A stretch of 64,000 bases of DNA, taken from the NCBI GenBank assembly GCA_964518425.1, contig CAZFGG010000003.1, positions 9,634 to 73,633 on the forward strand, given 5' to 3'. Below, one piece after another: positions 81-47,542 of the stretch. Positions within the stretch are counted from its first letter, which is position 1; every line of letters starts with the position of its first letter. Origin of the DNA: an uncultured Gammaproteobacteria bacterium (lineage in GTDB: Bacteria > Patescibacteriota > Patescibacteriia > SBBC01 > CAIJZX01). The position numbers were made by a program, and so were the translations under genes. Below the pieces are notes generated by a model, which was not told the origin of the DNA, searched no databases, and worked only from the letters and a program-made list of their open reading frames with translations.

Positions 81-854
81 CTACTCCGACGAACGGTGGA
101 CTGGCAACTCAACACGCATGACTGATCGCAAGACCCGTTCACTCCGGAGTGGCTGGTCGATCGTGTGGTGGATCATGGCTTCGATTATTTTGTGAAGGTG
201 GAGGAGCGCTGGCCGTTCCGACTGCGGCCACTGGCCAGTCCGCAGGAAGAGGAGATGATGATCATCGAGCATCAAGGCATCGACCGCCGCTTCACCACGA
301 TGCACAAATCCGTACGCTGGTTCGTAGGCCGCTAGACCTTCCAAGGGGCGGTGACATCGGCCGCAGACGTCCAGACTCGGTCGGAACCCCTCGTGAGCCA
401 AGAAGAGGCTGGCGCGTCGGAGTAAGAGTAGCCAGCGGCGACCGAGTGGCATAACGACTTCACTGGACATCTCCACCAAGCTTTGCCGGACAAGATCGTA
501 CAGTCCGGCGGTCGGTTGGGCTGGCTTGGTCATGACATCAACTAACTCGAGTAGCCACTGACTACTGACCGAAGCCACGAGGTCATCGTGGAGGACCGGA
601 AAGCGGTCAATGATGACGCTGCCGATGACCTGCTCAACCACGCGGCCGTCGGCCAGGCTGAGATCAACTTCTGTCATTGGCTCAAGCGAGCCAGCGAGCT
701 TCGAGGTGCTCTTCTTTGTCCCCCGGGCACGCACTCGTAATTGCCCGTGCTGTGGCGTCAGGACAGTTAATAATCGGTCGTGTTCACGATCGGTTGAGTG
801 ACGGAGAATAATGGCTTTGGTATGGATGACAGCCATCGAGTTACGAGAGTCCAA
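81..854 (-). CDS. recO: DNA repair protein RecO
   Basis: 257 aa; N-terminal OB-fold-like region and C-terminal CGRC zinc-finger-like motif typical of RecO; overlaps the ileS stop by 14 nt. Confidence 0.6.
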   Translation of the reverse strand: MDSRNSMAVIHTKAIILRHSTDREHDRLLTVLTPQHGQLRVRARGTKKSTSKLAGSLEPMTEVDLSLADGRVVEQVIGSVIIDRFPVLHDDLVASVSSQWLLELVDVMTKPAQPTAGLYDLVRQSLVEMSSEVVMPLGRRWLLLLRRASLFLAHEGFRPSLDVCGRCHRPLEGLAAYEPAYGFVHRGEAAVDALMLDDHHLLFLRTGQWPQSERPALLHLHKIIEAMIHHTIDQPLRSERVLRSVMRVELPVHRSSE

Positions 855-3800
855 TCGTTACTGGTCCATCAATATCGATCTGTGCTGTTTGCGTCGCCCC
901 GTCCACCGACGGCGTCACGGCTTTCGCCCGGACATCGCGTAAGAACGTTTGCGCGTAGACCTCAATGACCTTGGCGGCCATCGTCTTCGGTTCAACATGA
1001 GCGATAATCTCATCGGTCGGTTTCAGTCCGGCTGTTTTCCGCAAGGCGTTGAACTCGCGGATGAGATCGCGGAGCATACCTTCGGCCTTGAGTTCATCGG
1101 TAATGGTTGTATCAAGCGCCACATCCTCCCCCACTGCCCATTCATTTCCCGTCGGAAGTTTTTCAGTTAAGTGGATTTCTTTAACATTCAGCTCATCACG
1201 GATCACCGCATCCAGGTCTGGGCGGAGCTGTTCGGTCGTAACGACTTGCTGTAGTGGTTGGCGGACTTTCAACCCAGCTTTGGCTCGTAAACTATGTCCT
1301 TGTTCCACGACCCGACGGGCCAGGGCCATGTCGGCAACCAACCGTTCATGCATCTCCCCCACTTTGGGCCAATCTTCGAGATGGACCGATTCCATTTCAC
1401 CACCAACCAGGTGATACACATGGTCGGCGAGGAACGGCGTAAACGGCGCCATGAGTTTTGAGAGCTTCAAGAGTACGTGCTGCAGCATGGCGCTGGCCAA
1501 CGGCGCTTGGTCGCCCTTGAACCGATCGCGCGACCGCCGAACATACCACGTCGATAAATCAGTCACAAAGGCTCCGATGGCCCGGGCCGCACCAGTGATA
1601 TCATAGTGCTCAAGTCGTTCGGTCACGTCTTTTGTCAGCATGTTGACCATCGAGTGAATCCAACGGTCGAGTGGGTGCGTCGCCTGTTCCGGATCGGTGG
1701 TTGGACCTTGGTACAGTTGCCAGAAGCTGACGACGTTCATCAAGATGAGAAAAGTTTTTTTTACACCGTCATCAACAATTTTCGTGTCGAAATTTTTTGG
1801 ATCCCAGGGCTGATTCGTGGTGTACATGAACCAGCGCAAAGCGTCAGCCCCATGCTTGTCGAAGAGCTCATTCAAATCACCATAATTCTTGAGCGACTTC
1901 GATAGTTTGCGTCCTTTGGCATCGTTGAGGTGTCCGAGGACAACTACGTTTTCGTATGAGGCGTGCTTGACGACCTTGGACTTCTGCAGGAGCGTGCTGA
2001 TCGCTAAGAGCGTGTAGAACCAGCCACGCGTTTGGTCAATCGCTTCGGAAATATAGTTGGCCGGATAGGCTTTGCCCGCATCAATACTTTCCTTGTTCTC
2101 GAATGGATAATGGTATTGCGCGAACGGCATAGCACCCGAATCGAACCAAGCGTCCCCGACTTCCGGGATCCGTTTCATGGTCCCCTGGTGACATTTCTGA
2201 CAAAGCCATGTCACACCGTCAATATACGGCCGATGCGGATCAAAACTGCCGTCGAGTTGCAGCAGACCACCATGGAATTTCAGTTCTTCTGGTTGCCCAT
2301 ACGGCACGTCTTCGAACCGCGTGAGCGTCGGAATTGATTGAAGTGATGTCGCCCATTTTGTCACGAGGATCGGGTCAGCGTGCGTAACAATAACGAATGT
2401 CTTGCCTTCATGGTGAGTATCGAGATCAGACAAGAAACTGATCATCCGTCGGCGAATATCTTTCCACGTTTCTCCACCCGGCGGCGCATCGTCTAAACGC
2501 TTGGCGCGATCACCAAATTTCTCATGAAACTCTTCGATCGTTTTTTCTTCGTAGGCCGGGCCGATGTGGTATTCGTTGATGGCTGTTTCTTCAGTGACGG
2601 ACAGGCCAAGTACTTCCGCATAGATTTCAGCCGTCTCTTTGGCGCGCAAGAATTGTGAAGAGTAGAGCCCATCAACTGATTCTTTTTTCAGTTTTTCAGC
2701 ACCAGCCTTGGCTTCCGCCCGACCTGTGTCAGTCAACGGATATTTCTGGGTATTCGTCAATTCGGTATTCAGCTTGTGTTCAAGATTGAGATTCGACTCT
2801 CCATGCCGGACAAAGAAATACCTGTTGCGTGTCGGCAAATGATCCAATAACTCTTGGTATGAGCCAAGACATTCTTGATGGGCACAATCCTGATTATCAC
2901 ACTGCCAAATCGGCAGCGGTGTCCCCCAATACCGTTCACGCGAAATCGCCCAGTCTTTGACTTCGCGCAGCCATTCGCCAAACCGACCTTCTTTAATGTG
3001 ATTCGGGTACCATTTGATGCTCTCGTTATTCTTGATCAGATCATCACGAAGTTTCGACATCATGATGAACCACGTCATTTTGGCGTAGTACAACAATGGA
3101 TGTTTACACCGCCAGCAAAACGGGTAATCGTGTTTGTACTTCTCAACCTTATACAATTTCCCGTGTTCTTGTAGCCAAGCGATAATTTTTTGTTGCGTCT
3201 CCCCTGCTGGGTCTTTGACTTCTAATCCAGCCCAGGGTTTCACTAAATCATTAAACTTACCAGTAAGGTCGACCGTATGAACTTTCGGCAAGTCGAGTCG
3301 CTGGCCAAGCTTGAAGTCGTCTTCACCATACATCACAGCCGTGTGGACGATGCCTGTGCCGTCTTCGGTCGTGACGAAGTCTGCCTCGGCAATGTAATAG
3401 GCTTTCTTACCTGACTCTTTCGATAAATCAACGAAGTCGAAAAGTGGCCTGTATGCTTGCCCGAGAATTTTTTTGCCCGGAAAACTTTCGACAATTTCAT
3501 GATCACCATTAAGTTTGTGAAGCAACGCTTTGGCAATAATCACGAACTCATCTCCTGACTTAACTTTGATGTATTCAATATTCGGATCAATCGCTAAGGC
3601 GACATTCCCCGGTAATGTCCACGGTGTCGTTGTCCAGGCCAGAACAAAAGTTCCTGGTTCATCGATCAGTTCAAATTTGACGTAGACAGAATCTTCTTCA
3701 ATGTTCTGATATCCTTGCGCCACCTCGTGACTCGACAAGGCCGTGCCGCAGCGCGGACAATACGGCACCACCTTGTAATCCTGTTCCAGTAATTTCTTAT

Positions 3801-4329
3801 CCCAAATCTGCTTGTAGATCCACCACAAGCTCTCAATGTATTCCGGCTGGTAGGTAATGTAGGGATGGTCCGTGTCCAGCCAAAAACCAACGCGCTCAGT
3901 CATCTTTTCCCACAAGTCCTTATACTTCCATACGGATTCTTTGGCCTTGGCGTTGAATTTCTCGATCCCGTACTTCTCGATATCTTTCTTGCCGGAAATG
4001 CCTAAATCTTTTTCGACCTCTAATTCAACGGGCAACCCTTGGGTGTCCCAACCGGCTTTCCGTTCAACGTGAAATCCCTGCATGGTTTTGAACCGCGGGA
4101 TAATGTCCTTGAAGGCCCGGGTTTCAACGTGACCAATGTGCGGAATACCGTTGGCTGTCGGCGGTCCGTCATAAAACACAAAGTTGCCCTGGGGTGAGGA
4201 CTTGGCTAAGGTTTTCTTGAAAATGTCCTTAGCGGCCCAGTCCTTCAGGATCTCTTCTTCGAGTTCGGGGAATTTGGGGATGGGCATTAGGGCAATCGAT
4301 GAACGGTACTGATGGCGATGATTAGCCAA
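841..4329 (-). CDS. ileS: Isoleucyl-tRNA synthetase with an inserted histidine-phosphatase (PGAM-like) domain
   Basis: HIGH motif (PHIGHVETR), KMSKS motif (KLSKSL), WGTPLPIW and DAWFDSG editing/catalytic signatures; 1162 aa, about 200 aa longer than typical IleS. Confidence 0.9.
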   Translation of the reverse strand: MANHRHQYRSSIALMPIPKFPELEEEILKDWAAKDIFKKTLAKSSPQGNFVFYDGPPTANGIPHIGHVETRAFKDIIPRFKTMQGFHVERKAGWDTQGLPVELEVEKDLGISGKKDIEKYGIEKFNAKAKESVWKYKDLWEKMTERVGFWLDTDHPYITYQPEYIESLWWIYKQIWDKKLLEQDYKVVPYCPRCGTALSSHEVAQGYQNIEEDSVYVKFELIDEPGTFVLAWTTTPWTLPGNVALAIDPNIEYIKVKSGDEFVIIAKALLHKLNGDHEIVESFPGKKILGQAYRPLFDFVDLSKESGKKAYYIAEADFVTTEDGTGIVHTAVMYGEDDFKLGQRLDLPKVHTVDLTGKFNDLVKPWAGLEVKDPAGETQQKIIAWLQEHGKLYKVEKYKHDYPFCWRCKHPLLYYAKMTWFIMMSKLRDDLIKNNESIKWYPNHIKEGRFGEWLREVKDWAISRERYWGTPLPIWQCDNQDCAHQECLGSYQELLDHLPTRNRYFFVRHGESNLNLEHKLNTELTNTQKYPLTDTGRAEAKAGAEKLKKESVDGLYSSQFLRAKETAEIYAEVLGLSVTEETAINEYHIGPAYEEKTIEEFHEKFGDRAKRLDDAPPGGETWKDIRRRMISFLSDLDTHHEGKTFVIVTHADPILVTKWATSLQSIPTLTRFEDVPYGQPEELKFHGGLLQLDGSFDPHRPYIDGVTWLCQKCHQGTMKRIPEVGDAWFDSGAMPFAQYHYPFENKESIDAGKAYPANYISEAIDQTRGWFYTLLAISTLLQKSKVVKHASYENVVVLGHLNDAKGRKLSKSLKNYGDLNELFDKHGADALRWFMYTTNQPWDPKNFDTKIVDDGVKKTFLILMNVVSFWQLYQGPTTDPEQATHPLDRWIHSMVNMLTKDVTERLEHYDITGAARAIGAFVTDLSTWYVRRSRDRFKGDQAPLASAMLQHVLLKLSKLMAPFTPFLADHVYHLVGGEMESVHLEDWPKVGEMHERLVADMALARRVVEQGHSLRAKAGLKVRQPLQQVVTTEQLRPDLDAVIRDELNVKEIHLTEKLPTGNEWAVGEDVALDTTITDELKAEGMLRDLIREFNALRKTAGLKPTDEIIAHVEPKTMAAKVIEVYAQTFLRDVRAKAVTPSVDGATQTAQIDIDGPVTIGLS
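2217..2832 (-). other. Inserted histidine phosphatase / phosphoglycerate-mutase-like domain inside ileS (about aa 500-705)
   Basis: FFVRHGESNLN (RHG catalytic motif), LTDTGRAEAKAGAEKL, ETWKDIRRRM, IVTHADPI (second catalytic His). Lies between WGTPLPIW and DAWFDSG, where canonical IleS has only about 60 aa. Confidence 0.65.
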
Positions 4330-11219: not shown

Positions 11220-11622
11220 GGGGATGTTCAAACGTCGATCGATCGTTGATAGCTCGATTGGTATCATGCCGAACCGCCGACAACTTCGTAAAAATGTCGG
11301 ACATGATAAGTGCCAATACACTTCTCAGCAAACTTCGGACCGCGGTAGCTCGCGCTTTCGCGACCCCGTCGTTTGTTCCCGCCTTCGCTTAATACCGTTG
11401 GCGCATCCGTCTCCTGACTCCGGTTAGGGAATCACGGGTGTCACTTCACCGGACCGATTGGTAGACCGTTCAGTCCTAGCAATCGGTATTGTCTGAACAC
11501 CGTCATCACGACTTCTCGTTCGTTGTCTACGTGGTGACGTTATCCAACAGCGGACTATGCATGTAAGACGTACTATCGGGATATCCGTCGCCACGCGGGT
11601 GCAAGACCCGCCATCTCCACCA
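11220..11622 (+). ncRNA. ssrA: tmRNA (SsrA)
   Basis: Immediately downstream of smpB. 5' GGGGAUG pairs with 3' CAUCUCC followed by ACCA (11612-11622). T-arm-like GCGGG-UGCAAGA-CCCGC. Internal tag reading frame ends ...ATPSFVPAFA-TAA, like the Mycoplasma-type long tags that end AFA. 5' UUCAAACGUCGA resembles the conserved tmRNA UUCGACG. Confidence 0.6.
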
Positions 11623-11690: not shown

Positions 11691-12164
11691 ATGAGTTCGA
11701 AAAAAAGCTCCATTCTCCCAATCGCCGTTATGGCTCTGGCCATTGTCGCGTTTTTGTTCGTCATCAACTGGGCGATCACGCCGAACCAAAAATTGCCATG
11801 GTTGACCAATAGTAGTCAGGTCAAGACGACGAACACAAACACTTCCCCTGAAGGAACAAACGTCGTGTTAGCCGGCAAGGTCTGGATATATGGTTGTCCG
11901 GCTCAGCGGGTGAATACTCCTTGCGGTGGACCGCCGCCCACCAGCGACACTATTGTGGTGTACTCTGGCAACCGATCGACGGTCGTCGCGAAACAACAGT
12001 ATGGTCAAAACGGCTCGTTCCATTTCTCGTTACCAGCTGGAACCTACATCCTGGCTCTCGGAACGTATGGCCTCAGCTCCGGTCAAAATGAGCGACAAGT
12101 GACGCTCACATCCGGCCATGACGTGACCGATCTGTCGATTCAACTCGATAGCGGGATACGATAG
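11691..12164 (+). CDS. Small secreted or membrane-anchored protein, paralog family with a conserved N-terminal leader
   Basis: N-terminus SILPIAVMALAIVAFLFVINWAITPNQKLPWLT shared with ORFs 12201..12644 and 19739..20857; C-terminal beta-rich domain. Confidence 0.55.
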   Translation: MSSKKSSILPIAVMALAIVAFLFVINWAITPNQKLPWLTNSSQVKTTNTNTSPEGTNVVLAGKVWIYGCPAQRVNTPCGGPPPTSDTIVVYSGNRSTVVAKQQYGQNGSFHFSLPAGTYILALGTYGLSSGQNERQVTLTSGHDVTDLSIQLDSGIR

Positions 12165-12200: not shown

Positions 12201-12644
12201 ATGCTCGAGGTCACAACACGTAAAGGAAGTGTTCTCCCCATCGCCGTCATGGCCTTTGCCATCGTGGCCTTTTTGTTCGTTATGGATTGGGCCGTCAATC
12301 CGCACCAGCGATGGCCGTGGTCGACAACTTCTGCGTCCAAAAACACAAACATCGTAGCCTGTACCCAAGAAGCCAAACTTTGTCCTGATGGAAGTTACGT
12401 TGGTCGGACTGGGCGGGACTGTGCGTTCGCGACCTGTCCGAGTGTGAACGCTAACATGTCCATCAATTCATCAAACTACAACACGAATAGTCCAGAACTC
12501 ACTCCCCAAGAGGACAAGAATAATGCCAATAGCAACACCAACGAATCAGTCTCCTGTGGCGACGCGGCCTACCGTTGTCCTGATGGCAGCTTCGTCTTCG
12601 AGGTTCCCCCGACCTGTCACTTCGCCGCCTGCCCTGGCACCTAG
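12201..12644 (+). CDS. Small secreted Cys-rich protein, same leader family; internal duplicated CPDGS...C..A.CP motif
   Basis: SVLPIAVMAFAIVAFLFVMDWAVNPHQRWPWST leader; CPDGSYVGRTGRDCAFATCP and CPDGSFVFEVPPTCHFAACP repeats; shares NTNSPELTPQED with 19739..20857. Confidence 0.55.
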   Translation: MLEVTTRKGSVLPIAVMAFAIVAFLFVMDWAVNPHQRWPWSTTSASKNTNIVACTQEAKLCPDGSYVGRTGRDCAFATCPSVNANMSINSSNYNTNSPELTPQEDKNNANSNTNESVSCGDAAYRCPDGSFVFEVPPTCHFAACPGT

Positions 12645-16031: not shown

Positions 16032-16107
16032 GGACCCATAGTGTAGCGGTTAACACGTCTCCCTGTCACGGAGAAGATCGGGGGTTCGAATCCCCCTGGG
16101 TCCGCCA
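16032..16107 (+). tRNA. tRNA-Asp (GTC)
   Basis: Cloverleaf: acceptor GGACCCA/TGGGTCC, D-stem GTGT/ACAC, anticodon loop CTGTCAC, T-loop TTCGAAT, encoded CCA. Preceded by a TGcTACACT extended -10-like element. Confidence 0.9.
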
Positions 16108-19738: not shown

Positions 19739-20857
19739 CTAGGTGAAGGTGAAGGTGGAAAGAATGGTTTTGGGTACAGTGGAAGAATCGGAGCCAGCCC
19801 GTAAGAGAATGTTTCTTTCACCCGTCCAACTAGTCGGTGGTGTGCTGAATTTAATGGTAGTGGCGGGTGAACAGGATGTGCAGTTGGCTGAAGAAACAAC
19901 GGTCCAATCGCTTTGAGTGGCCATCTTATTGCCGACAGTTACTTGCGAGGTTGTGGCTGTATATTGAGCATCTTGGGTCACGAGACAACCCTGGCTAGTC
20001 GGACACACTTCAAATAAAATATTGGAGTTAGCCGGATCCGTTACTAACGCATACTCGGTTCCAAACACATTCTTTGGATCATCCGCGTGGGCGGTTTGCA
20101 AACTCCAATTCGATGGGTACTTGAACGAATACCCATACTTCGTATCAGTATACGTCTTCCACCCGGCGGTGGGATCGGTGATAACTAACGTCGACAGAAT
20201 AATTCGAAGTGTTTCGATGTCAGCCGATGTCTTTGGTTCAGAAGTAATGTTGTTGTTGGCAGTCCATCCATTCATACGATACGTTGTTAGGACGTAATAG
20301 TCGTAGTTAGGAAGATTTGTAGCCCCTAAATTCTTCCGTACGGTTTTCTTGGCTACCTGCCCAGCCAGCGTCACAGTTTCGGTGGAAATCACATTGCTAT
20401 CGTCTGTCGTTGACCCATCTGGGATAACGTAGAATAAAGACTTTGTTGTCGGCGCGGTTACCCCTGCGCCTACTGACAATGCGGGCTTTGTATCTAACGT
20501 CCAATTTGTCGGATACTTGAAAGAGAAGCCATGTGTCGAATCCGTATACGTCTTCCAATCCGCCGTTGCATCAACATCCCCGTGCGTCGGGCCGATGTTA
20601 GCATTTTGCTGATCTTCTTGGGGCGTTAGTTCGGGACTATTGGTGTTGTAGATTGGGGTGTTTACCACCTGCCCGGTATTCGTGTTCGCGGTGTTCTCCA
20701 CCTTCGTTGACCATGGCCATTTCAGCCCCGGCGAGACTGCCCAAGCGATAACGAAAATAAAAGCCGCCACGGCAAAGGCCATTACAGCGATGGGGAGAAT
20801 GGAGGCACGACGCATAGGGTTTGTTGTTATTTCTGCGGTGGATAAAGTATAGCACAA
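19739..20857 (-). CDS. Secreted protein of the conserved-leader family with two tandem about 110-aa domains
   Basis: Leader SILPIAVMAFAVAAFIFVIAWAVSPGLKWPWST; duplicated GWKTYTD..G(F/Y)SFKYP(T/S)NW(T/S)L domains. Confidence 0.55.
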   Translation of the reverse strand: MCYTLSTAEITTNPMRRASILPIAVMAFAVAAFIFVIAWAVSPGLKWPWSTKVENTANTNTGQVVNTPIYNTNSPELTPQEDQQNANIGPTHGDVDATADWKTYTDSTHGFSFKYPTNWTLDTKPALSVGAGVTAPTTKSLFYVIPDGSTTDDSNVISTETVTLAGQVAKKTVRKNLGATNLPNYDYYVLTTYRMNGWTANNNITSEPKTSADIETLRIILSTLVITDPTAGWKTYTDTKYGYSFKYPSNWSLQTAHADDPKNVFGTEYALVTDPANSNILFEVCPTSQGCLVTQDAQYTATTSQVTVGNKMATQSDWTVVSSANCTSCSPATTIKFSTPPTSWTGERNILLRAGSDSSTVPKTILSTFTFT

Positions 20858-22188: not shown

Positions 22189-22764
22189 TTACTGGATGGT
22201 AAAGACCGATGACACGACAGTCGGCGCGTTCTCCACCTGCCAATCCCCTTCGCTGGGGGCCTTGGTCATGGCCAGGTACTTCGCGGCGAAACGATAGGTC
22301 CCGGATGGAGCATTCATGACGACGTTGCCGAGTTGAGGTCCGGGGACTTGGGTATTCCATTGTGCTGTTTTGATCGTGTGACGGGTGAACGTCTCTTGAC
22401 CGAAGTGCGTTGTCGAGCAGGTTTCTTTGCTCAACGGAACGGCCATCCAGGTTTCTCCATCGCTCTGCAACTGTTGAACTTGCCACCAGCTATCGCTACA
22501 ACCGTCCGCGTGCTCGGTCAGCCAAATTGGTTTCCGACTATCGTTGCGCAAGGCAAGTAAAACCGTGTCTCCGGCCCGATAGACCTCTTTATCGATTTGG
22601 AATTTCAATCGTACCGACGACGTCATCACACTGGCTGGGTGGTCGAGGCTATCAGCCCCAGCTGTCGTGATTCTCGATTGCAGAACAAGAATGGCCAAGA
22701 CGCCCCAACCGACAATCAGTCCCAAGGAAATAGGGATGCTAACCCGCTTCGTAACGCCCATCAT
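22189..22764 (-). CDS. Hypothetical N-terminally anchored secreted protein
   Basis: 191-aa ORF with N-terminal TM; 4-nt overlap with the upstream gene. Confidence 0.35.
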   Translation of the reverse strand: MMGVTKRVSIPISLGLIVGWGVLAILVLQSRITTAGADSLDHPASVMTSSVRLKFQIDKEVYRAGDTVLLALRNDSRKPIWLTEHADGCSDSWWQVQQLQSDGETWMAVPLSKETCSTTHFGQETFTRHTIKTAQWNTQVPGPQLGNVVMNAPSGTYRFAAKYLAMTKAPSEGDWQVENAPTVVSSVFTIQ

Positions 22765-23705
22765 GATGATTGGAGGAGAGTTGATAAGGATACCGGCGTG
22801 TAGCCCTTAGCTTTCAGGTCAGTCAGCAATCCCGGGAGGAACTGCGGAGTAATATCATAGCCGGCATGGAGCAAAATAATTGCCCCAGGTTCAAGTTTAT
22901 CGAGGACACGCTGCTTCGCTTGGTCAGCCGTGACGCCATCTTTCCAATCAAAGGCATCAACCGACCAGGTCACGACGCAGTACCCAGCGGCCTTGGCGGC
23001 CGCTACGACGGCAGCGTTGGTCGCGCCAAAGGGCGGCCGGACAAGTGGTTTTGAACTCTGATTGGTCGCGTTACTAATGCTTTGGTCGGCCGACGCCAGC
23101 GATGCAGTAACCTCCTCGGGTGTGAGCGTCGTGAGATCAACGCTTTTTGCGCCATGGTTGTAGATCGCGTAGCCGGCGGAGGACACTGATTTTAGGAAGT
23201 CCGCATGGGCGTCGGCGAACGTCCCGGTGCTAAAGAAGCTGGCGGCAACTTTTTGCTGTTGTATCAGGGTCAGCACCTGCTTGGCTTGATCGTTGGCGGC
23301 GGACAGGTCAAACGTCAGCGCCACGTTCTTCTTCGTTCCGAATTGTCCAATCACACCACTACAACTATCAACCGAAAAATTCGTCCATGCTTCAGAAGTT
23401 GTCACCGAGGTGTTCGTGTTGCTATTGGTCGTCGCGACATTAACGTTCACGGACGAATTTTCGTTCAGCAGGGCAATGTCGACGGAATTGGAATTTTTTG
23501 ACGCGGCGTGGGTTGAAGGCTTCTTATGACCAAAAACCGCTCGTCCAATCAGAACGACAACCAGAATGGTCACGAGCGCGCCAAGCCAGCGCCGCCACGG
23601 GAGTGGGGACGAAGCATGACGAGGTTGGTACCGGCGAAAATCACTCATGAATAGCGACGGTTGCGCGCCGCCGTGAGTATACCACAGCCAATTGGTACAG
23701 GCCAA
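22761..23705 (-). CDS. Polysaccharide deacetylase (CE4/NodB homology) family, membrane-anchored
   Basis: RPPFGATN (RxPF), DAFDWKDG (DxxDW) and IILLHAGYD motifs. TFDLS and NHG are divergent at the metal-binding positions. Confidence 0.65.
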   Translation of the reverse strand: MACTNWLWYTHGGAQPSLFMSDFRRYQPRHASSPLPWRRWLGALVTILVVVLIGRAVFGHKKPSTHAASKNSNSVDIALLNENSSVNVNVATTNSNTNTSVTTSEAWTNFSVDSCSGVIGQFGTKKNVALTFDLSAANDQAKQVLTLIQQQKVAASFFSTGTFADAHADFLKSVSSAGYAIYNHGAKSVDLTTLTPEEVTASLASADQSISNATNQSSKPLVRPPFGATNAAVVAAAKAAGYCVVTWSVDAFDWKDGVTADQAKQRVLDKLEPGAIILLHAGYDITPQFLPGLLTDLKAKGYTPVSLSTLLQSS

Positions 23706-24198
23706 AGAAGAGCCCTGTATACCCTAGGTCGCCGAGAACGGTGTTGCGGAAAAACGGTAAGCCAGCGATATACGACTGGCCGAGGCCAGCCAGCGTGCGC
23801 ACATAGATGGTTCCAAAAGCCCAGACGGCCGCGTTCGTCACCAGGTAAAACAATGCTGAGCCAGCCAGGCTGGCGAGGATTAAGCGAGCGGTGGTGAGTC
23901 GCCGGGATAGCCACCGCCCAAGGGCGTAGCTAGCGGCGAAACTGGCGTAGATGCTGATTGTGATCGGCAGGAGGTCAAAACCAATGATCGTGTCGGCCAC
24001 GAGCATCAGTCCCAAGGGGACAACCAGGGCATATTTTCGCGGTAACGCGACGGCGCTGAGCATGGCCAGGGCGCTGACCGGAGCGATGTTCGGAGGCAAT
24101 GGCAGATAGCCAAAATGCCGGGTCACCCGCAAACCAGCGCCGATAATGATCAGCCCAATCGCGTACCAGGTCGTGAATGACCAACGTTTCATTCCCAT
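23641..24198 (-). CDS. Small polytopic membrane protein, possibly an ECF-type substrate-capture (S) component
   Basis: 185 aa, about 5-6 TM helices, the size and topology of ECF S components. Immediately downstream of two DUF4430 genes and cobO. Confidence 0.35.
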   Translation of the reverse strand: MGMKRWSFTTWYAIGLIIIGAGLRVTRHFGYLPLPPNIAPVSALAMLSAVALPRKYALVVPLGLMLVADTIIGFDLLPITISIYASFAASYALGRWLSRRLTTARLILASLAGSALFYLVTNAAVWAFGTIYVRTLAGLGQSYIAGLPFFRNTVLGDLGYTGLFFGLYQLAVVYSRRRATVAIHE

Positions 24199-24992
24199 GT
24201 GACGGTCAGCGTGTCGCCCTGACTGAGACTCGTTGAGCTCAAGTCATTGACCGCCGTCCCATTCAGCTCGACAACCCATTGCCCAGTAGCGTCGTTGGGC
24301 TGATGCAAGAACGAAGCCAGGTATATTGATGCTCCCCGGCTGACATAGGTCAATGACCCGTGGAGAGCGCTGGCCGACCGGGCCAGGGCTTCAGTCACGG
24401 TCCCGCTGGCGACCGTCGTGGTGACTGTCGTTTCGCTGGTCGGTTGACGAACAGTCACGCTGACGCTTAAGGGTTGACTGGTCTTCAATCCAAGAATCTT
24501 TCCCGATGATTCGCCTGGCAAAGTAGATGGGCTGGTTGAACGCGTGACAAAACCGGCAATGGAAACCAAGGCGACCGCCGTCAGTACCCCCACCATCGGC
24601 AAGAATCGTGACCGAGCCTGAATTAACTCGGGCGGCGCGATGAGCGGACGGGAAGAGGGGGTCGGCCCAACCTTGAGTACTGGTTGGTGGATCGCCTCGG
24701 CGTAAACAGTCTTCTCGGCTACCGCTAGCGCCGCCGGTCGGATCAAGCTCCGAAGGGCAGTCGAAACTGGGACTGCACGCTCCCCGCCCATCTTCTTGGC
24801 AGAAGTGGTTGTGGTGGACCGGCGGACTGACCGCTTCGTCGAATGAGAACTTTTCCGGCGACCCGCCGGACCTGAAGCCTTAGAAGGCTTCAAGCTTCCA
24901 CTCGATGGTATCCGTGTTCTTGGTTTGGTAGTCTTTCGCACCGACTTCAGCTTGTTTGCCATTAACGTAGAATGACCAATATTGGTGATCAC
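24189..24992 (-). CDS. DUF4430-domain protein (transcobalamin-beta-like fold), N-terminal basic/Ser-Thr-rich region and TM anchor
   Basis: C-terminal GQWVVELNGTAVNDLSSTSLSQGDTLTVTWE matches the DUF4430 signature (W.F.VNG...GD.I.W). The true start is probably internal, since the long ORF overlaps the upstream gene by 113 nt. Confidence 0.55.
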   Translation of the reverse strand: MITNIGHSTLMANKLKSVRKTTKPRTRIPSSGSLKPSKASGPAGRRKSSHSTKRSVRRSTTTTSAKKMGGERAVPVSTALRSLIRPAALAVAEKTVYAEAIHQPVLKVGPTPSSRPLIAPPELIQARSRFLPMVGVLTAVALVSIAGFVTRSTSPSTLPGESSGKILGLKTSQPLSVSVTVRQPTSETTVTTTVASGTVTEALARSASALHGSLTYVSRGASIYLASFLHQPNDATGQWVVELNGTAVNDLSSTSLSQGDTLTVTWE

Positions 24993-25260
24993 CGGGTTTC
25001 ACGCCGTCGATAGCGTTGACGAATCCGGCGGTCGAGACATCGACCGTGTGTGTAGACTTGAGCAAGTCTAAAGCATTTTTGCCAGTTTGACCAGGGTAGC
25101 GGTGACAGCTATCAGTCTCGGTCGGACATTTGACGACAACCTGGGCACTGGTATTCGTGTGAACGACTGTATTGGCATTATAGGTCTGCGTCAGACTGCA
25201 TGAAGCGCCGGTTAGGCTCAGGGTGACCAGGACCGCCAGAAGTAGTTTTTTTTGATGCAT
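24880..25260 (-). CDS. DUF4430-domain secreted/lipoprotein-like protein
   Basis: Signal peptide; KNALDLLKSTHTVDVSTAGFVNAIDGVKPGDHQYWSFYVNGKQAEVGAKDYQTKNTDTIEWKLEAF, a strong DUF4430 pattern. Confidence 0.65.
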   Translation of the reverse strand: MHQKKLLLAVLVTLSLTGASCSLTQTYNANTVVHTNTSAQVVVKCPTETDSCHRYPGQTGKNALDLLKSTHTVDVSTAGFVNAIDGVKPGDHQYWSFYVNGKQAEVGAKDYQTKNTDTIEWKLEAF

Positions 25261-25299
25261 AAGATGTTGGTGGGTTATGAATAAATCCCCGCCAACGTG

Positions 25300-25510
25300 T
25301 TGTAGCAGGTATTTTCTGTCATGGTTCGACTACCCGCTTCGCGGGCCTCGCCTCCGGCGAGGGCTCACCATGACATTGAATACTAGCCTTTCCACGAAGG
25401 TCTTGTCTTTATCCATCATTCGACGGTGATGGAAAGGTGTCCGATTGTACGGTGGCGGGACCATCCCGGAATTGCGCCGGGTTACCTACAAACAGTGTAA
25501 ATGTCCGCTA
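25300..25510 (-). promoter_or_regulatory. Candidate cobalamin riboswitch in the 265-nt leader of the DUF4430 operon
   Basis: Minus-strand GGUAACCCGGCGCAAUUCCGGGAUGGUCCCGCCACCGUACAAUCGG resembles the B12-element core (GGGAAn-CGGUGnnAAUCCnG ... CCCGCnACUGUnA), with several mismatches. Followed by GC-rich hairpins (CCUCGCC-GGA-GGCGAGG; CCCGC-GAA-GCGGG). Confidence 0.35.
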
Positions 25511-25525
25511 TCAGGGTGTCAACCA

Positions 25526-26170
25526 CTAATAATCCAATCCCCTGGTCGCAATAATCCCCTGGTAGTAGGGGTGCTTGATCATTTTCATCTCTGTCACGAG
25601 GTCTGCGTATTTCAGCATCCACGGAATTTTTTTGTGTCCGGTCCAGATGAGGTGGATATTCTTGGCTTGCTTGTCTTTCCGTCGGTCCTTCAGAAATTGT
25701 TCAACGGGTTTGCGTTCCAACAACTTTTCCTCAACCGCTGATCCGAGTTCGTCGAGAATAACGAGTTGGAATCCACCGCGAAAAACTTTTTCCCGGGCGA
25801 CGTCGAGGGCGTGCAAAGCCGCGCCCTTATGTTGCTTTTCGGCTTTACGGTCATTGAGAATCTTGTACCATCCTTCACCCATGACCTGAACTTCAACGCC
25901 AAGTTTTTTCAAGCTCGTCCGCTCCCCGCTCGGCCACTTGGCTTCTTTCATGAACTGTAAAAAAAGCACTCGCCAGCCATACCCAGCGGCCCGAACCGCC
26001 GTCCCGACCGCCGCCGTGGTTTTGCCTTTGCCGTCACCAATATACGCATGGGTCAGGCCGTGGTCAGCGGGACGGAGTTTTTTTGGAGCGCGAGGTGGCA
26101 TACATTCGTCGTCCTGAGGCTTACGAAGGACAATGTTGTCGATCGTGGTTCGAGAACCTCGCCACGACAA
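25526..26170 (-). CDS. cobO: Cob(I)alamin/corrinoid adenosyltransferase (CobA/CobO/BtuR family)
   Basis: IGDGKGKTTAAVGTAVRAAGYGWRVLFLQFMK...GE and QLVILDELG motifs of the BtuR/CobO P-loop family. Confidence 0.75.
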   Translation of the reverse strand: MSWRGSRTTIDNIVLRKPQDDECMPPRAPKKLRPADHGLTHAYIGDGKGKTTAAVGTAVRAAGYGWRVLFLQFMKEAKWPSGERTSLKKLGVEVQVMGEGWYKILNDRKAEKQHKGAALHALDVAREKVFRGGFQLVILDELGSAVEEKLLERKPVEQFLKDRRKDKQAKNIHLIWTGHKKIPWMLKYADLVTEMKMIKHPYYQGIIATRGLDY

Positions 26171-26506
26171 CTAAATTTTTATCTTCTGACTCCACCCATA
26201 CACCAGCGGCAACTGGTACCGTTTCCCCTGCCAGGCCTGGACGAATCCAACCACCATCCCGGCCACCGCCAAGGCCCAAACAATCCAGCCAATAACGGGG
26301 ATGAACCCAAAAACCGAAGCGATCAAGAGGATGACACCCTGTTTAGCGTGGAATTGAACGAACTCGTCGTTCCGTTTCACCACCAACATAATCAAGCTGA
26401 TAATCCAGACATACGACAGGGCGGCCATGATATTCTGGTCGCTCGTCGGCGGGATTTTGTTGATCTCGCTCTTAACATCTTCTTTAACTTTGTTGATGGT
26501 AGGCAT
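26171..26506 (-). CDS. DUF4870-family small membrane protein
   Basis: AALSYVWIISLIMLVV...FVQFHAKQGVILLI pattern typical of DUF4870. Confidence 0.5.
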   Translation of the reverse strand: MPTINKVKEDVKSEINKIPPTSDQNIMAALSYVWIISLIMLVVKRNDEFVQFHAKQGVILLIASVFGFIPVIGWIVWALAVAGMVVGFVQAWQGKRYQLPLVYGWSQKIKI

Positions 26507-26532: not shown

Positions 26533-27369
26533 TCACTGCTTGTCCGTTGTGGATACTTTAAGGTTATCGAAACGCACCTTTGGTAAAGCGTTTAGGGTCG
26601 GATCAGATAAACCGATACCAATACGTTTTTTGCCATTAAAGGATTGTTGCATAGTGAACGTCCACTGCATTTCCGGTCCGGCGCTTTTTGTTTCAACCTT
26701 CTTTCCATCTCGGTCGTAAAAACTGAGAAAAACTCGCACCTCGTGCAGCCCTCCCGCCGTCGGTTTTGCCTCAATATAAATCTTCCCTTTGACAGCATGT
26801 TCAAGGGGAATGTCTTGGGAAAGATACACTCGGTCTTGAGCCCTTTCAGGTAATCCGTCCGGCCTCCAGTTACGCCAAATGTTGTCTTCGTCCATTTTCT
26901 TTAATGAAACTGCTCGTCGGTCGCCATCGCCAACATTAAGTATAAAAGTATTTTCAACAATCACAAATGTGTTCATCTGTTGCGTCTTAGGCGCGACGGA
27001 AAATTCTATTACAGAGTTCTCGGTCAGTGATTTTTTTGAAAGAAAATATCCTTCGGTACACCCTCCGGCGAGAGTCATTACATTACTATCCAGGACAATA
27101 CAATTTTTTAAATTTACCAAGTCTGACATATCATTAGGATCAGCAGCAAGAATCACCTTATAGGCCGGGCTAGTAATCGCAAAAACAATACCGAGCCCGT
27201 CCTTGATGATCGGGTATAGAGCTGTCAGCACCGCTGCTGCCAAAAAAAGTTCCCTTGACCGTTTAAGTGCCCATTTACGAAGAGCACCAAAACTCAGGGA
27301 GTTTTGGTGCTTCTTCTGGCGCTGTTTCCACTTGTATAAAGTCTTTTTAGGCTTTCCCCATAAGGACAT
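26533..27369 (-). CDS. Hypothetical type-II membrane protein (basic N-terminus, one TM, about 200-aa extracytoplasmic domain)
   Basis: ORF only; the region 26.5-27.4 kb is visibly AT-richer than its surroundings. Confidence 0.35.
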   Translation of the reverse strand: MSLWGKPKKTLYKWKQRQKKHQNSLSFGALRKWALKRSRELFLAAAVLTALYPIIKDGLGIVFAITSPAYKVILAADPNDMSDLVNLKNCIVLDSNVMTLAGGCTEGYFLSKKSLTENSVIEFSVAPKTQQMNTFVIVENTFILNVGDGDRRAVSLKKMDEDNIWRNWRPDGLPERAQDRVYLSQDIPLEHAVKGKIYIEAKPTAGGLHEVRVFLSFYDRDGKKVETKSAGPEMQWTFTMQQSFNGKKRIGIGLSDPTLNALPKVRFDNLKVSTTDKQ

Positions 27370-27440: not shown

Positions 27441-30400
27441 TCAACTACACCCCGTCGTCGTCCCACACTCAATGCAGAGCATGCACGAGCCATTCCGTTT
27501 CATCTTCATCGAGCCACAGTTGGTACACGTATCGCCGGTAAAGCCTTGGGCTTTGGCCACGGCTGTCGTGTTGATCGGTGATGGACTCATGGCGACATTG
27601 TTGGCCGCAACATTGGCTGGTTTTTCAATGACGGCCGTACCCGGGAACTGTGCTTGGACCGGCTGATCGTCGTGGTTCGGCTTGATCTGGACGAGGTCTT
27701 CACGATTGAGGTATTCGTACCCAAGCAAGCGGAAGATGTAATCAAGAATCGAGGTCGACATCTTGATATTCGGATGGCCGATGACTGGGCCGGCTGGTTC
27801 GAAGCGGGTGAAGGTGAATGTTTCGACCAATTCTTCCAAGGGCATACCGTACTGTAAGCTCTTCGAGACGAGGATAGCGAAACAGTTGATCAACGAGCGG
27901 TAGGCCGCGCCGTCCTTATACATGTCGATGAAGACTTCGCCCAGCCGGCCGTCATTGTACTCACCGGTCCGGAGGAAAACTTTGTGTCCGCCGACCACAG
28001 CTTCTTGGGTCCAGCCGACGCGTTTCGGCGGCAACTTCTCTTTGACCGCCCGCATGGCCGCGATATTGTTGACCTGCTGCGGCGTCACTTCTGCCACGTC
28101 GTCGTCGACCGCGCCAAGGGCCGTGATCTCATCGTCATCAGAATTGGAGTTCAGGGGTTGTGATAATTTCGAACCGTCACGGTAGAGCGCCACCGCTTTG
28201 AGCATCATCTTCCACGAATCCCAGTAGACCTGCTTGACCTCTTCGATCGACGCTTCGGCCGGCATGTTGATCGTCTTGGAGATAGCGCCAGAGATGAATG
28301 GTTGAGTGGCGGCCATCATTTTGACGTGGGCATTGTAGGCGATGTAACGCTGACCCTTGGTGCCACATTTATTGGCGCAGTCAAAAATCGCGTAATGTTC
28401 TTCTTTTAGGTGCGGCGCGCCTTCGATAGTCATGGTCCCAACGACGTACTCATTGGCCAGGGTGATCTGATCTTTGGTGAAGCCAATCGTTTCAAGAATG
28501 TTTAAGGAGGGATCGTCAACTTTGACACCCAACCGATTGATGATGTCCGGGCCAAGCGTAGCCGGATTGAAGACGAAACGGATATCAAAGGCACCGTCCA
28601 GCGTCAATTCAATCTTGGCCAGGTCTTCGCCGGTCAATCCTTTGGCTTTGAGCGTTTCGTGATTGATGTGCGGGCTACCGAGCAAGGTGCCATGACCCTT
28701 ACAGTAGTTTTCGATGTCCACGATTTGCTGATCAGAGTACCCCAAGCGCTTGAGCGCTTTCGGCACAGATTGGTTGACGATTTTAAAGTATCCGCCGCCG
28801 GCAAGTTTCTTGAATTTCACAATGGCGAAATCCGGCTCAACACCAGTTGTATCGCAATCCATCAGTAGGCCGATCGTACCAGTCGGCGCGATAACCGTGA
28901 CTTGGGCGTTGCGGAAGCCGTAGTCTTTCCCCCACTGGAGAGCACGGTCCCAGGCTTCGCGAGCGGCTCGGATGAGGTACTCGGGCGCGGCTTTCGGGTC
29001 AATGCCCATGGGCGTAATGCTCAACCCTTCATATTCGCTGGCCGGGGCGTTGTAGGCCGCCCGACGGTGATTTCGAATAACCCGGAGCATGTGGTCTTTG
29101 TTCCGTTCATAGCCGGGGAAAGCGCCGAGGTGCGAAGCGATCTCGGCCGAAGCGGCGTAGGCTTCGCCGGTCATGATCGAGGTCAGTGAGCCCGCGATCG
29201 ACAAGGCTTGTGGCGAGTCGTACGGTACGCCCATCATCATCAAGACTGTCCCGAGGTTGGCGTAGCCGAGACCAAGCGTGCGGAAGATGTAGGACAAGCG
29301 GGCAATTTCTTTACCTGGAAATTGGGCCATCAGAACCGAAATTTCTAGAGTGATCGTCCAGAGCCGGCAGGCATGTTTGAATCCATCGACGTTGAAGGTG
29401 CCGGTTTCAGGGTTATAGAAATGGGCTAAATTGATTGACGATAAATTACAGGCCGTATCGTCGAGGAACATATACTCCGAACAGGGGTTCGAGCCGTTGA
29501 TCCGGCCGTCTTCCGGACAGGTGTGCCATTCGTTAATCGTCGTATCGAATTGTAACCCCGGGTCAGCGCAAGCCCAAGCGGCGTACGCGATTTCATCCCA
29601 CAGGTGCCGCGCCGGAACAGTCTTGGCGACGTCGCGTGTTGTCCGCCAGAGTAAATTCCAGGGCTGATCCCGCTCGACATTATCCATGTAGGTATTCGTG
29701 ACGCGGACCGTGTTGTTGGAGTTTTGACCGGCCACCGTCTGATAGGCCTCGTCTTCGAAGTGCGTAGAAAATGTTGGGAAGTCAATGTGATCATGGCCTT
29801 GCTCAACCAAAGCTAAACAGCGCTGGATGTAGCTGAGCGGAACGTGGCGTTGTCGGGCGTGACGGACGGCCTGGCCGAGCCGGGCGCTCTTGCGATAATC
29901 GGTGGTGTTCTCTTCGCTGGCCACGGCCATGATGACGTTGAGTTCGTGGTTGTTGATTTTGCTTCCGGCCACCAGGTCGGCGACTTTCTGTTCTTCTTCC
30001 ACTTTCCAATCAATGAACTGTTCAATATCTGGATGATCGACGTCGACCACGACCATTTTGGCCGCCCGCCGGGTCGTGCCGCCAGATTGGATGGCGCCGG
30101 CGCTGCGATCGAAGATTTTCAGGAAAGACATCAAGCCGGAACTATGACCGCCGCCGGACAATTTCTCTTCCCGGCCGCGCAGGGCCGAGAAGTTCGATCC
30201 GGTCCCGGAACCAAATTTGAACAGCCGCGCTTCACGCGTGACCAGGTCGAAAATACCGCCCTCGTTGACGAGATCATCGTTGATTTTCTGAATGAAGCAG
30301 GCGTGCGGCTGGGGGTGGGTATAGGCGTCCGTTGATTCTTTCAAAACACCGCTCTGCGGATCAATGTAGTAGTGCCCCTGAGGCGTACCAGTAATCCCGT

Positions 30401-30944
30401 AGGCCCACTGCAAGCCCGTGTTAAACCACTGCGGCGAGTTCGGCGCGCCCATTTGGCGGATCAGGGTGTGTTCCATTTCGTCCTGGTACGCTTGAGCGTC
30501 ATCGGTCGAAAAGAAATAGCCGTGTTGCTCACCCCACCAGCGCCAGGTTCCCGCTAACCGTCGGACGACTTGTTGAGCGCTTCGTTCCGGCCCAAGAATC
30601 TGGCGACCGTCGGTCCCAAGAATTGGTGAGCCGTCAACATGGACCTGGGGTACACCAGCCTTGCGGAAGTATTTCTGGGCGATAATGTCCGTCGCGACCT
30701 GGCTCCAGGTGACTGGTACCTCGACATCCTTAATCTCCTTGACGACCGTTCCATCAGGATTCTTAATGATGGAACTGCGTTTTTCATATTGCAATTGCTC
30801 GAGCGGATCCTGCCCGGCCATGGTGAACTGCCGTTGGATCTTCATCCCCGGTCCACGTTTCTTCGGTACAGCCGCAACTGGTTGATCAACCGACGCTGCT
30901 TGCGTGCGCAAGCGATCAGGAGAAGAGGTGGTGGTCGCGGGCAT
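27441..30944 (-). CDS. nrdJ: Adenosylcobalamin-dependent class II ribonucleotide reductase, long form with C-terminal Zn-ribbon
   Basis: [25 protein letters not shown]-terminus typical of NrdJ (so the true start may be M34 at 30845); NPCSEY active-site region; C-terminal [22 protein letters not shown]. Confidence 0.85.
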
Positions 30945-30984: not shown

Positions 30985-31458
30985 TTATTTGGTTGAACCT
31001 TTTCGCTTTTTTTTGGTCAGCCGGTTCAACTCATCTTTGAACGATTCAACATCTTGGAATTGGCGATAGACTGAGGCGAAACGAATGTAGGCTACCTGAT
31101 CGACCCGTTGGAGACGCTTCATGACAATCTCGCCAATCTGCTGGGAGGTAATCTCGGTCCGACCGCGGAGCTGAATGTCGCGTTCAATTTGCCCCACCAG
31201 CTTTTTGAAGGTTTGCCCAGTGATGGATCGTTTCTCCGTCGCTCGACGAAGCCCAGCTTCCATCTTCTCGCGGCTGTAGGGTTCCCGTCGGCCATCTCGT
31301 TTCATGACCGTCAGGTTCAGAATTTCGACTTCTTCGATCGTCGAAAAACGATAACCGCAGCGATCACACTCTCGGCGGCGGCGGATGGCCAGACCCTCAT
31401 CGGTCACCCGGGAGTCCATGACGCTGGTATCAGGATTGTGGCAAGAAGGGCACTTCAT
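30985..31458 (-). CDS. nrdR: Transcriptional repressor NrdR (Zn-ribbon + ATP-cone)
   Basis: MKCPSCHNPDTSVMDSRVTDEG...CDRCGYRFST Zn ribbon; ATP-cone (VMKRDGRREPYSREKM). Confidence 0.9.
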   Translation of the reverse strand: MKCPSCHNPDTSVMDSRVTDEGLAIRRRRECDRCGYRFSTIEEVEILNLTVMKRDGRREPYSREKMEAGLRRATEKRSITGQTFKKLVGQIERDIQLRGRTEITSQQIGEIVMKRLQRVDQVAYIRFASVYRQFQDVESFKDELNRLTKKKRKGSTK

Positions 31459-47465: not shown

Positions 47466-47542
47466 TGGTGGTCGCACCTGGACTCGAACCAGGGACCTTT
47501 CCGATGTGAACGGAACGCTCTAACCAACTGAGCTATGCGACC
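47466..47542 (-). tRNA. tRNA-Val (CAC)
   Basis: Minus-strand cloverleaf GGTCGCA...TTCACAT anticodon loop...TTCGAGT...TGCGACC-A-CCA. Confidence 0.9.

Follow-up and report, generated by a model that had tools for sequence, protein, structure and literature searches.

A probable riboswitch-controlled B12 salvage locus beside a class II ribonucleotide reductase gene in a Kerfeldbacteria-like bacterium

Introduction

The closest described relative of the locus reported here is the nrdJ-cbrS-cbrT-pduO cluster of Lactobacillales, which houses the B12 (cobalamin) S component CbrT (Santos et al. 2018, PMC5997447). For the energy-coupling factor (ECF) transporter ECF-CbrT of Lactobacillus delbrueckii, transport of both cobalamin and cobinamide has been shown and the structure has been solved (PDB 6FNP; PMC5997447). 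In Lactobacillus sakei, genes for an ECF-like transporter share the operon lsa1836-1840 with genes for proteins that resemble the alpha and beta domains of transcobalamin, and this operon has been proposed to import heme (bioRxiv 10.1101/864751). Here, we analysed a 64-kb stretch of contig CAZFGG010000003.1 (hereafter “the window”), on the minus strand of which a corrinoid adenosyltransferase gene is followed by a 265-nt leader (25525..25261), two genes for putative surface proteins of the DUF4430 fold, and a gene for a small membrane protein of the DUF6580 family. We consider this locus to be, most probably, a riboswitch-controlled corrinoid (B12) salvage unit of a tiny, groundwater-type, Kerfeldbacteria-like bacterium of the Candidate Phyla Radiation (CPR), built like the Lactobacillales cluster.

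Contigs carrying CbrT homologues from Lactobacillales display the order nrdJ, DUF4430, DUF4430, CbrT, and PduO-type adenosyltransferase. The window has the same gene set and keeps the order of its uptake part, in which one or two DUF4430 genes come directly before the gene for a predicted six-helix, S-component-like protein of about 180 amino acids (aa), with a class II nrdJ and a corrinoid adenosyltransferase gene alongside. We therefore class the locus with a known system, as a variant of it, and not as an uncharacterised kind. Hence, an earlier annotation made from the letters of this DNA and its open reading frames (ORFs), the sequence-only reading, overstated the case in describing the uptake unit as biochemically uncharacterised; its functional reading was otherwise largely right. 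Several features nevertheless set the two systems apart. Unlike in Lactobacillales, the CPR membrane protein belongs to PF20221 (DUF6580) instead of PF12822, the adenosyltransferase is of the CobO/BtuR type and non-orthologous to the PduO-type enzyme, and the operon carries a cobalamin riboswitch; no such riboswitch was found at gathering level in the two Lactobacillales loci. Unlike ECF-CbrT, the CPR system comes without a known ECF module. The L. sakei operon resembles the window locus in joining an S component and extracellular transcobalamin-like capture proteins in one operon, and differs in carrying its own ATPase and T components, with no riboswitch or nrdJ link reported there. The genes that form the core of the window locus are:

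27441..30944, minus strand: nrdJ, class II (adenosylcobalamin-dependent) ribonucleotide reductase (PF08471 E 3e-35, PF02867 E 3e-125, TSCPD)
25526..26170 (maximal ORF), minus strand: cobO/btuR-type ATP:corrinoid adenosyltransferase (PF02572 E 6e-50, 170 bits against a cut-off of 25.7)
24880..25260, minus strand: DUF4430 protein (CbrS-like), 126 aa (PF14478 E 1.4e-16, 61.1 bits against a gathering threshold of 23.8)
24189..24992, minus strand: second, putative DUF4430-fold protein, up to 267 aa (probable start at 24962 or 24893; 234 aa in the NCBI call)
23641..24198, minus strand: DUF6580 membrane protein, 185 aa (PF20221 E 2e-39)

This gene order is the one originally described, and the assignments of CobO and NrdJ were both borne out. 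NrdJ contains the class II-specific N-terminal domain (PF08471) as well as the ribonucleotide reductase barrel (PF02867), and is the likely consumer of the imported cofactor. CobO probably starts at the ATG at 26101, which yields 191 aa (190-191 aa in orthologues), and scores 138.6 bits against the TIGR00708 equivalog model, under the stricter cut-off of 167.75. The cobO gene lies 1.3 kb from nrdJ and upstream of the promoter and riboswitch described below. It is therefore outside the riboswitch-controlled operon, and its earlier inclusion in a single uptake unit has to be given up. Sources label homologues of the window proteins, and related loci, as Candidatus Kerfeldbacteria, and we assign the host of the locus to a Kerfeldbacteria-like CPR bacterium.

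A compact cobalamin riboswitch ahead of the operon

Cobalamin riboswitches without the peripheral extension of P6 make up class II as the structural literature defines it. A motif resembling the cobalamin riboswitch core had been pointed out in the window leader, and we located it at 25487..25440. Four close relatives (L081, L083, L085, and L002) have leaders homologous to that of the window, and more distant loci (L004, L008, L028, L010, L036, L057, L041, L043, and L019) display gathering-level matches to the cobalamin riboswitch clan at the same position. Searching 820 kb of related loci with a covariance model (R1) of the compact form yielded 45 elements, 44 of them on the strand of the DUF6580 gene. 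At least 28 elements stand directly upstream of a DUF4430 gene, the gene that opens the operon behind the riboswitch in at least 28 related loci, and the remainder stand ahead of operons ending in DUF6580. A further model (R2), built from 17 related elements with the window clade left out, gave a single match in the whole window, at 25489..25386 (78.6 bits, E 2e-15).

The fold is also backed by covariation. Within the R1 alignment, which was fitted to the model and thus favours the structure, paired cells make up 90.8% (61.9% in shuffles), the covariation score reaches 0.529 (0.145 in shuffles and at most 0.148 in slid controls), compensatory changes occur in all six helices, and helices 1-4 are paired at 79-100%. 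A kissing loop, the tertiary contact by which cobalamin riboswitches are defined and which ties the aptamer to the expression platform, joins L5 (UCCCG) to L13 (CG(U)GGA), in which the third base is bulged. Across the 45 elements, 89.5% of L5-L13 cells are paired, with a covariation of 0.132 against 0.038 in shuffles, and the pair 97-366, between the second base of L5 and the fifth of L13, occurs as CG in 14 sequences and as GC in 12. Owing to the bulged base in L13, a search for uninterrupted L5/L13 complementarity found nothing, and the column-wise test succeeded. Taken together, these comparative results indicate that the leader RNA is a genuine cobalamin riboswitch, as had been suggested. 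Its features are, in order:

25494..25522, minus strand: sigma-70-type promoter TTGACA-17-TACACT, from a promoter scan (10/12 matches), 4 nt past the cobO stop codon
25386..25489, minus strand: compact cobalamin riboswitch aptamer (RF00174 23.0 bits; R1 and R2 models; helix and kissing-loop covariation)
25487-84 / 25438-35, minus strand: P3
25481-77 / 25469-65, minus strand: P4
25462-61 / 25455-54, minus strand: P5, with L5 UCCCG at 25460-56
25452-50 / 25443-41, minus strand: P6
within the aptamer: B12-box remnant, CGGACACCU
25433-27 / 25418-12, minus strand: hairpin A
within the aptamer: linker, AAAGACAAGA
25400-397 / 25390-87, minus strand: P13, with L13 CGUGGA at 25396-91

The RNA thus runs from the P3-P6 core through hairpin A and a conserved AAAGACAAG linker to P13/L13. 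It shares with riboswitches lacking the P6 extension (clan CL00101: RF00174 and RF01689, AdoCbl-II) a P3-P6 four-way junction that is backed by covariation and includes a conserved L4 loop (GCAAUU) and the B12-box remnant, along with the L5-L13 kissing loop and, in relatives of the window, a platform of the terminator type. Unlike in these riboswitches, the window promoter abuts P3, so that there is no 5' strand for P1/P2; hairpin A, located 3' of P3 and followed by the conserved linker, replaces P1, and the third base of L13 is bulged. No closing P1/P2 helix can be drawn from sequence 5' of P3, as the upstream sequences of the five clade leaders are not complementary to the strand that follows P3.

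A 'P1/P2' was aligned by Rfam, and we rejected it: its 5' stretch coincides with the conserved promoter, and what was taken for the 3' strand of P1 forms the 5' half of the covarying hairpin A. The RNA therefore most likely starts at P3. The promoter is kept in all five window-clade leaders as TTGAC(A/G/C), a spacer of 15-17 nt (17 nt in all but one), and TA(C/T)A(A/C)(T/A). Its -10 box ends 6-12 nt ahead of P3, and the sequence of the spacer is not conserved. Hairpin A changes in both strands between relatives (UCCAUCA/UGAUGGA in the window, UCCCC/GGGGA in L083, CUCCGC/GCGGAG in L081, and ACCGCC/GGCGGU in L008), and is absent from canonical relatives such as L010, which have a normal P1.

Other elements in the related loci display further variation. 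Inserted hairpins rich in CCCUCUCC/GGAGAGG occur within P6 or P4 loops, at 6627-6668 in L081 and in the aptamers of L003, L004, and L005, so the compact core tolerates variable extensions. Locus L043 contains tandem cobalamin-type riboswitch matches (3115-3197 and 3258-3352, plus strand) ahead of genes for an unknown 504-aa protein and DUF6580, and a third match on the opposite strand (7972-8093, minus strand).

Expression platform and proposed control

Downstream of the aptamer, the leader folds into two further hairpins:

25278..25385, minus strand: expression platform, consisting of hairpin B, then hairpin C
25383..25309, minus strand: hairpin B, variable, containing an inserted branched element
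25309..25288, minus strand: hairpin C, terminator-like in a scan, followed by GAUUUAUUCA

At the position that hairpin C takes in the window clade, L008, L063, L003, L004, L005, and L028 have an evident intrinsic terminator, complete with U-tract, after P13. RNAalifold returned an alternative structure in which hairpin C gives up its loop and 5' strand to pairing with L13 and the 3' strand of P13. The two partners change together: where L13 reads CGUGGA, the loop of hairpin C has ..CACG.. or ..UACG.., and where it reads CGGGGA, the loop has ..CCCGAAG... Under constrained folding of seven sequences (the window, L081, L083, L085, L002, L008, and L003), the free platform adopted the antiterminator, and the terminator hairpin formed once P13 was formed and L13 was unavailable.

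From these folding models, we propose that the element acts as an OFF switch at the level of transcription. The promoter right after cobO would yield a transcript starting at P3 of the compact riboswitch. With cobalamin bound, the L5-L13 kissing loop would lock P13, hairpin C would form, and transcription would stop ahead of the first gene. When no ligand is present, L13 and the 3' strand of P13 would instead form an antiterminator with the 5' half of hairpin C, and the operon would be read through.

A GGGGA ahead of the start codon was also considered as a Shine-Dalgarno sequence that L5 would sequester; its distance of 22-30 nt from the AUG, and the general lack of Shine-Dalgarno motifs in window genes, led us to reject it. 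The branched insert of hairpin B (25378..25314, minus strand) consists of GUCAUGG...CCAUGAC around two GC-rich hairpins; it is found in the window and L085, and is absent in L081, L083, and L002.

Putative corrinoid capture and translocation proteins

The beta domain of mammalian transcobalamin, haptocorrin, and intrinsic factor corresponds to DUF4430, and both small proteins of the window operon display this fold. The first (24880..25260) has a lipoprotein-type signal peptide with its cysteine and weakly matches the beta domain of transcobalamin in sequence, and we propose that it is a surface corrinoid binder; a metagenome scan returned no relatives of it. The sequence-only reading had named two DUF4430 proteins. 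This was confirmed for the first by its Pfam match, and for the second it holds by fold and fails by hidden Markov model (HMM), since the second ORF does not match PF14478 even at E 10, nor any other Pfam or NCBIfam family. This ORF encodes a basic N-terminal tail, a single membrane helix, and a C-terminal extracytoplasmic module of ~95 residues common to its family, which is narrow, with 12 homologues found, all of Kerfeldbacteria or Patescibacteria type. Alignment of this family to DUF4430 with hhalign is in register yet weak (probability 23%, E 9e-4). The AlphaFold (AF2) model of the module reaches a predicted local distance difference test score (pLDDT) above 90 over residues 30-123, and Foldseek matched it to the bacterial DUF4430 structure 3u7z (E 4e-5, template modelling (TM) score 0.62 by query and 0.76 by target) and to the beta domains of transcobalamin, haptocorrin, and intrinsic factor (E 4e-5 to 1e-3, probability 1.0). 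The predicted structure therefore points to a divergent transcobalamin-beta-like (DUF4430-fold) protein.

Unlike the mammalian binders, the window operon encodes two beta-like proteins and no alpha-like one (alpha/alpha toroid), and its proteins are membrane-tethered. In other CPR lineages, the riboswitch is followed by genes for DUF4430, for a large alpha/alpha-toroid protein that is secreted, and for DUF6580. These toroid proteins match Cobalamin_bind weakly, have repeats resembling those of prenyltransferases or squalene cyclases, and in some cases are fused to DUF4430; the fusion in L072 represents a complete transcobalamin-like architecture. Based on these domain matches, the toroid and DUF4430 proteins would be the two halves of a transcobalamin-like binder. 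The toroid genes between the DUF4430 and DUF6580 genes lie at:

L072, 2176-3981
L011, 2734-4443
L016, 2858-4918
L055, 1698-4562
L069, 2427-4913

BtuH of Bacteroides was ruled out as a DUF4430 protein, since binders of the BtuH type are DUF4465.

The last protein of the proposed route belongs to DUF6580, a family of 6,424 cluster representatives (50% identity) at E<=1e-3 that no paper in the literature we searched mentions. Its AlphaFold model, computed from 31 sequences, has a pLDDT of 92.7 and six long helices. The earlier suggestion that this protein resembles an ECF S component was supported at the profile level: hmmsearch of the DUF6580 profile against the PDB (E<=10) gave a sole match, 6fnp_A (E 3.4e-4), which is the S component CbrT and itself matches PF12822 as a fragment, and hhalign of DUF6580 against a CbrT-family alignment gave a probability of 88.8% (E 2.5e-6, 66 columns). 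The motifs PNV-PV and S(D/N)-IGF are shared between the two families in transmembrane helices 1-3. These matches indicate that the DUF6580 protein is a remote homologue of CbrT, and we propose it to be a corrinoid-translocating S component.

In the resulting scheme, the two membrane-tethered transcobalamin-beta-like proteins would capture corrinoid at the cell surface, the DUF6580 protein would move it across the membrane, and CobO, encoded upstream and outside the switch, would adenosylate the cofactor for the class II reductase NrdJ.

Alternative readings

A number of observations weigh against this reading of the locus, and those on the RNA open the way to another explanation of the leader. 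A gathering-level Rfam search of the whole window returned no riboswitch. The RF00174 check that had been suggested for the leader did produce a match in a permissive search of 25150-25650 (501 nt), at 25526..25415, which scores 23.0 bits (E 7e-4) and stays under the gathering threshold of 31.5; it is borderline on its own, and its alignment shrinks the P6 extension from 79 to 8 nt. The window clade, including L081, L083, L085, and L002, falls under all Rfam gathering thresholds. The usual P1/P2 and P6 extension are missing, and the transcription start, most likely the first base of P3 at ~25489-25487, is predicted from the promoter consensus only. Hairpin C is followed by a poor U-tract (GAUUUAUUCA) and intrinsic termination in the window clade is uncertain, which leaves room for another mode of control. 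Hence, the leader might be a decayed or non-regulatory remnant of a riboswitch, or act on translation and not transcription; window genes are mostly without Shine-Dalgarno sites, so that accessibility of the start codon could matter, and in L081, L083, and L085 a hairpin includes the start codon. We judge this improbable. That each helix and the kissing loop covary speaks for selection on the fold. L13 changes in step with the hairpin C loop (CGUGGA with ..CACG.., CGGGGA with ..CCCGAAG..), and clear intrinsic terminators occur in close relatives.

For the transport step, the similarity between DUF6580 and CbrT is confined to transmembrane helices 1-3, the S-component HMM PF12822 does not match the DUF6580 protein (PF20221 alone does at E<=0.01), and in a Foldseek search of its model against the PDB the only sensible matches were ECF S components (FolT, PanT, and 5edl) with non-significant E values of 0.3-1.2, including that to FolT, for which the probability is 0.95 and the TM scores are 0.51/0.55. 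The literature searched holds no binding or transport data on DUF4430 or DUF6580 proteins, and nothing relevant on B12 uptake in Patescibacteria/CPR. CbrT alone, without its ECF module, did not confer B12 uptake (PMC5997447), and a search of the window for Walker A and LSGGQ motifs found no gene for an ATP-binding cassette (ABC) or ECF ATPase. Within 5 kb of DUF6580, ABC ATPases occur in one of 80 related loci (L078, two genes), one being a half-transporter with a fused membrane domain and the other adjoining an ABC-2 permease gene, with no EcfT/CbiQ-type gene seen near them; an ECF-type ATPase/EcfT set is found within 5 kb in 0 of the 80. Exact look-ups of window proteins, aimed at reaching an ECF module further along the source contig, matched no record. 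The DUF6580 protein could be energised by an ECF module encoded elsewhere, or could act alone. In the latter case, the genes and RNA would be the same and DUF6580 would be an ECF-module-independent corrinoid transporter, fed directly by the tethered DUF4430 proteins, for which BtuM, a solitary S-component-like B12 transporter, is a precedent. BtuM is likewise a small six-helix membrane protein with proposed B12 import in the absence of a neighbouring ECF module, and differs in showing no sequence match, as the DUF6580 profile matched CbrT only in the PDB (E<=10). A solitary role would fit the missing ATPase genes, the status of DUF6580 as a separate family (PF20221) with different invariant residues, and its very wide distribution (6424 cluster representatives). 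However, group II ECF systems encode their module elsewhere in the genome, so its absence near DUF6580 says little, and the closest solved relative, CbrT, requires the module (PMC5997447). We thus view module-independent transport as possible and rather doubtful, and give slightly less credence still to the fuller proposal that DUF6580 is a stand-alone B12 transporter, loaded by tethered split transcobalamin-like proteins and switched by a minimal riboswitch starting at P3, that constitutes the main B12 entry route of CPR bacteria. Finally, the imported compound could be another tetrapyrrole or an incomplete corrinoid such as heme or cobinamide, given that CbrT carries cobinamide too and that an ECF operon encoding counterparts of both transcobalamin domains, alpha and beta, has been read as a heme importer (bioRxiv 10.1101/864751). 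This appears very unlikely, as cobalamin-clan riboswitches control the operon in more than 30 loci, the operon is linked to the adenosyltransferase and the adenosylcobalamin-dependent NrdJ, and the L. sakei heme proposal was based on docking.

Implications

If the locus is the B12 salvage unit we propose, corrinoid uptake would become a well-supported function for DUF6580, a family of ~6,400 cluster representatives (50% identity) on which we found no literature, and the same function would extend to an unrecognised branch of DUF4430-fold proteins. These two points and the compact riboswitch form are what is new here, the B12 system itself having already been studied in lactobacilli. Many small-genome Patescibacteria would then keep a dedicated, feedback-regulated unit for B12 import and activation beside a B12-dependent ribonucleotide reductase, and their reliance on other microbes would have B12 as a concrete currency. 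The sequence-only reading went further in stating that the organism must import B12 for DNA synthesis, which cannot be established from a 64-kb window; among the larger ORFs scanned, in a window scan that was not exhaustive, no second ribonucleotide reductase was seen. The compact riboswitch form, with its promoter abutting P3, a 3' hairpin for P1, and no P6 extension, is missed by current Rfam thresholds, which matters for regulon prediction in metagenomes. Should DUF6580 be independent of an ECF module, it would represent a second kind of solitary S-component B12 importer, and if the stand-alone route is true as a whole, DNA synthesis in these reduced cells would depend on corrinoids from neighbours or hosts.

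Neighbouring genes and other features of the window

From 31458 down to 22761, the minus-strand gene run comprises nrdR, nrdJ, a 278-aa protein, DUF4870, cobO, the 265-nt gap, DUF4430, the second ORF, DUF6580, and a deacetylase. The block nrdR-nrdJ-(DUF4870)-cobO-DUF4430-(second protein)-DUF6580-deacetylase recurs in many Patescibacteria, and nrdR-nrdJ stands ahead of the uptake locus in many related loci. The genes of this run outside the core are:

30985..31458, minus strand: nrdR, transcriptional repressor of ribonucleotide reductase genes (PF22811 and PF03477), which opens the conserved block
26533..27369, minus strand: 278-aa protein without family match
26171..26506, minus strand: small DUF4870 membrane protein, kept between nrdJ and cobO in Kerfeldbacteria-type loci
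22761..23705, minus strand: polysaccharide deacetylase gene (PF01522 E 3e-23), overlapping the 3' end of the DUF6580 gene

The deacetylase has no evident link to B12. By synteny, its gene comes after DUF6580 in many Patescibacteria loci, and therefore it may possibly share a transcript with it.

Elsewhere in the window, Shine-Dalgarno-like motifs are missing from the 22 nt ahead of the start codon in most long ORFs, and many starts follow ..AACC. A near-identical N-terminal membrane segment (..ILPIAVMAFAIVAF..) is common to the proteins at 11691..12164 (plus strand), 12201..12644 (plus strand), and 19739..20857 (minus strand), which therefore suggests a small paralogous family, possibly of anchored surface proteins. 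A 1162-aa class I aminoacyl-tRNA synthetase (841..4329, minus strand; tRNA-synt_1 and Anticodon_1) is IleRS-like and includes an internal histidine-phosphatase domain (His_Phos_1, E 9e-33, residues 505-656). The window also encodes a tmRNA (84.8 bits; 11220..11622, plus strand) and two tRNA genes (16032..16104, plus strand, and 47469..47542, minus strand).

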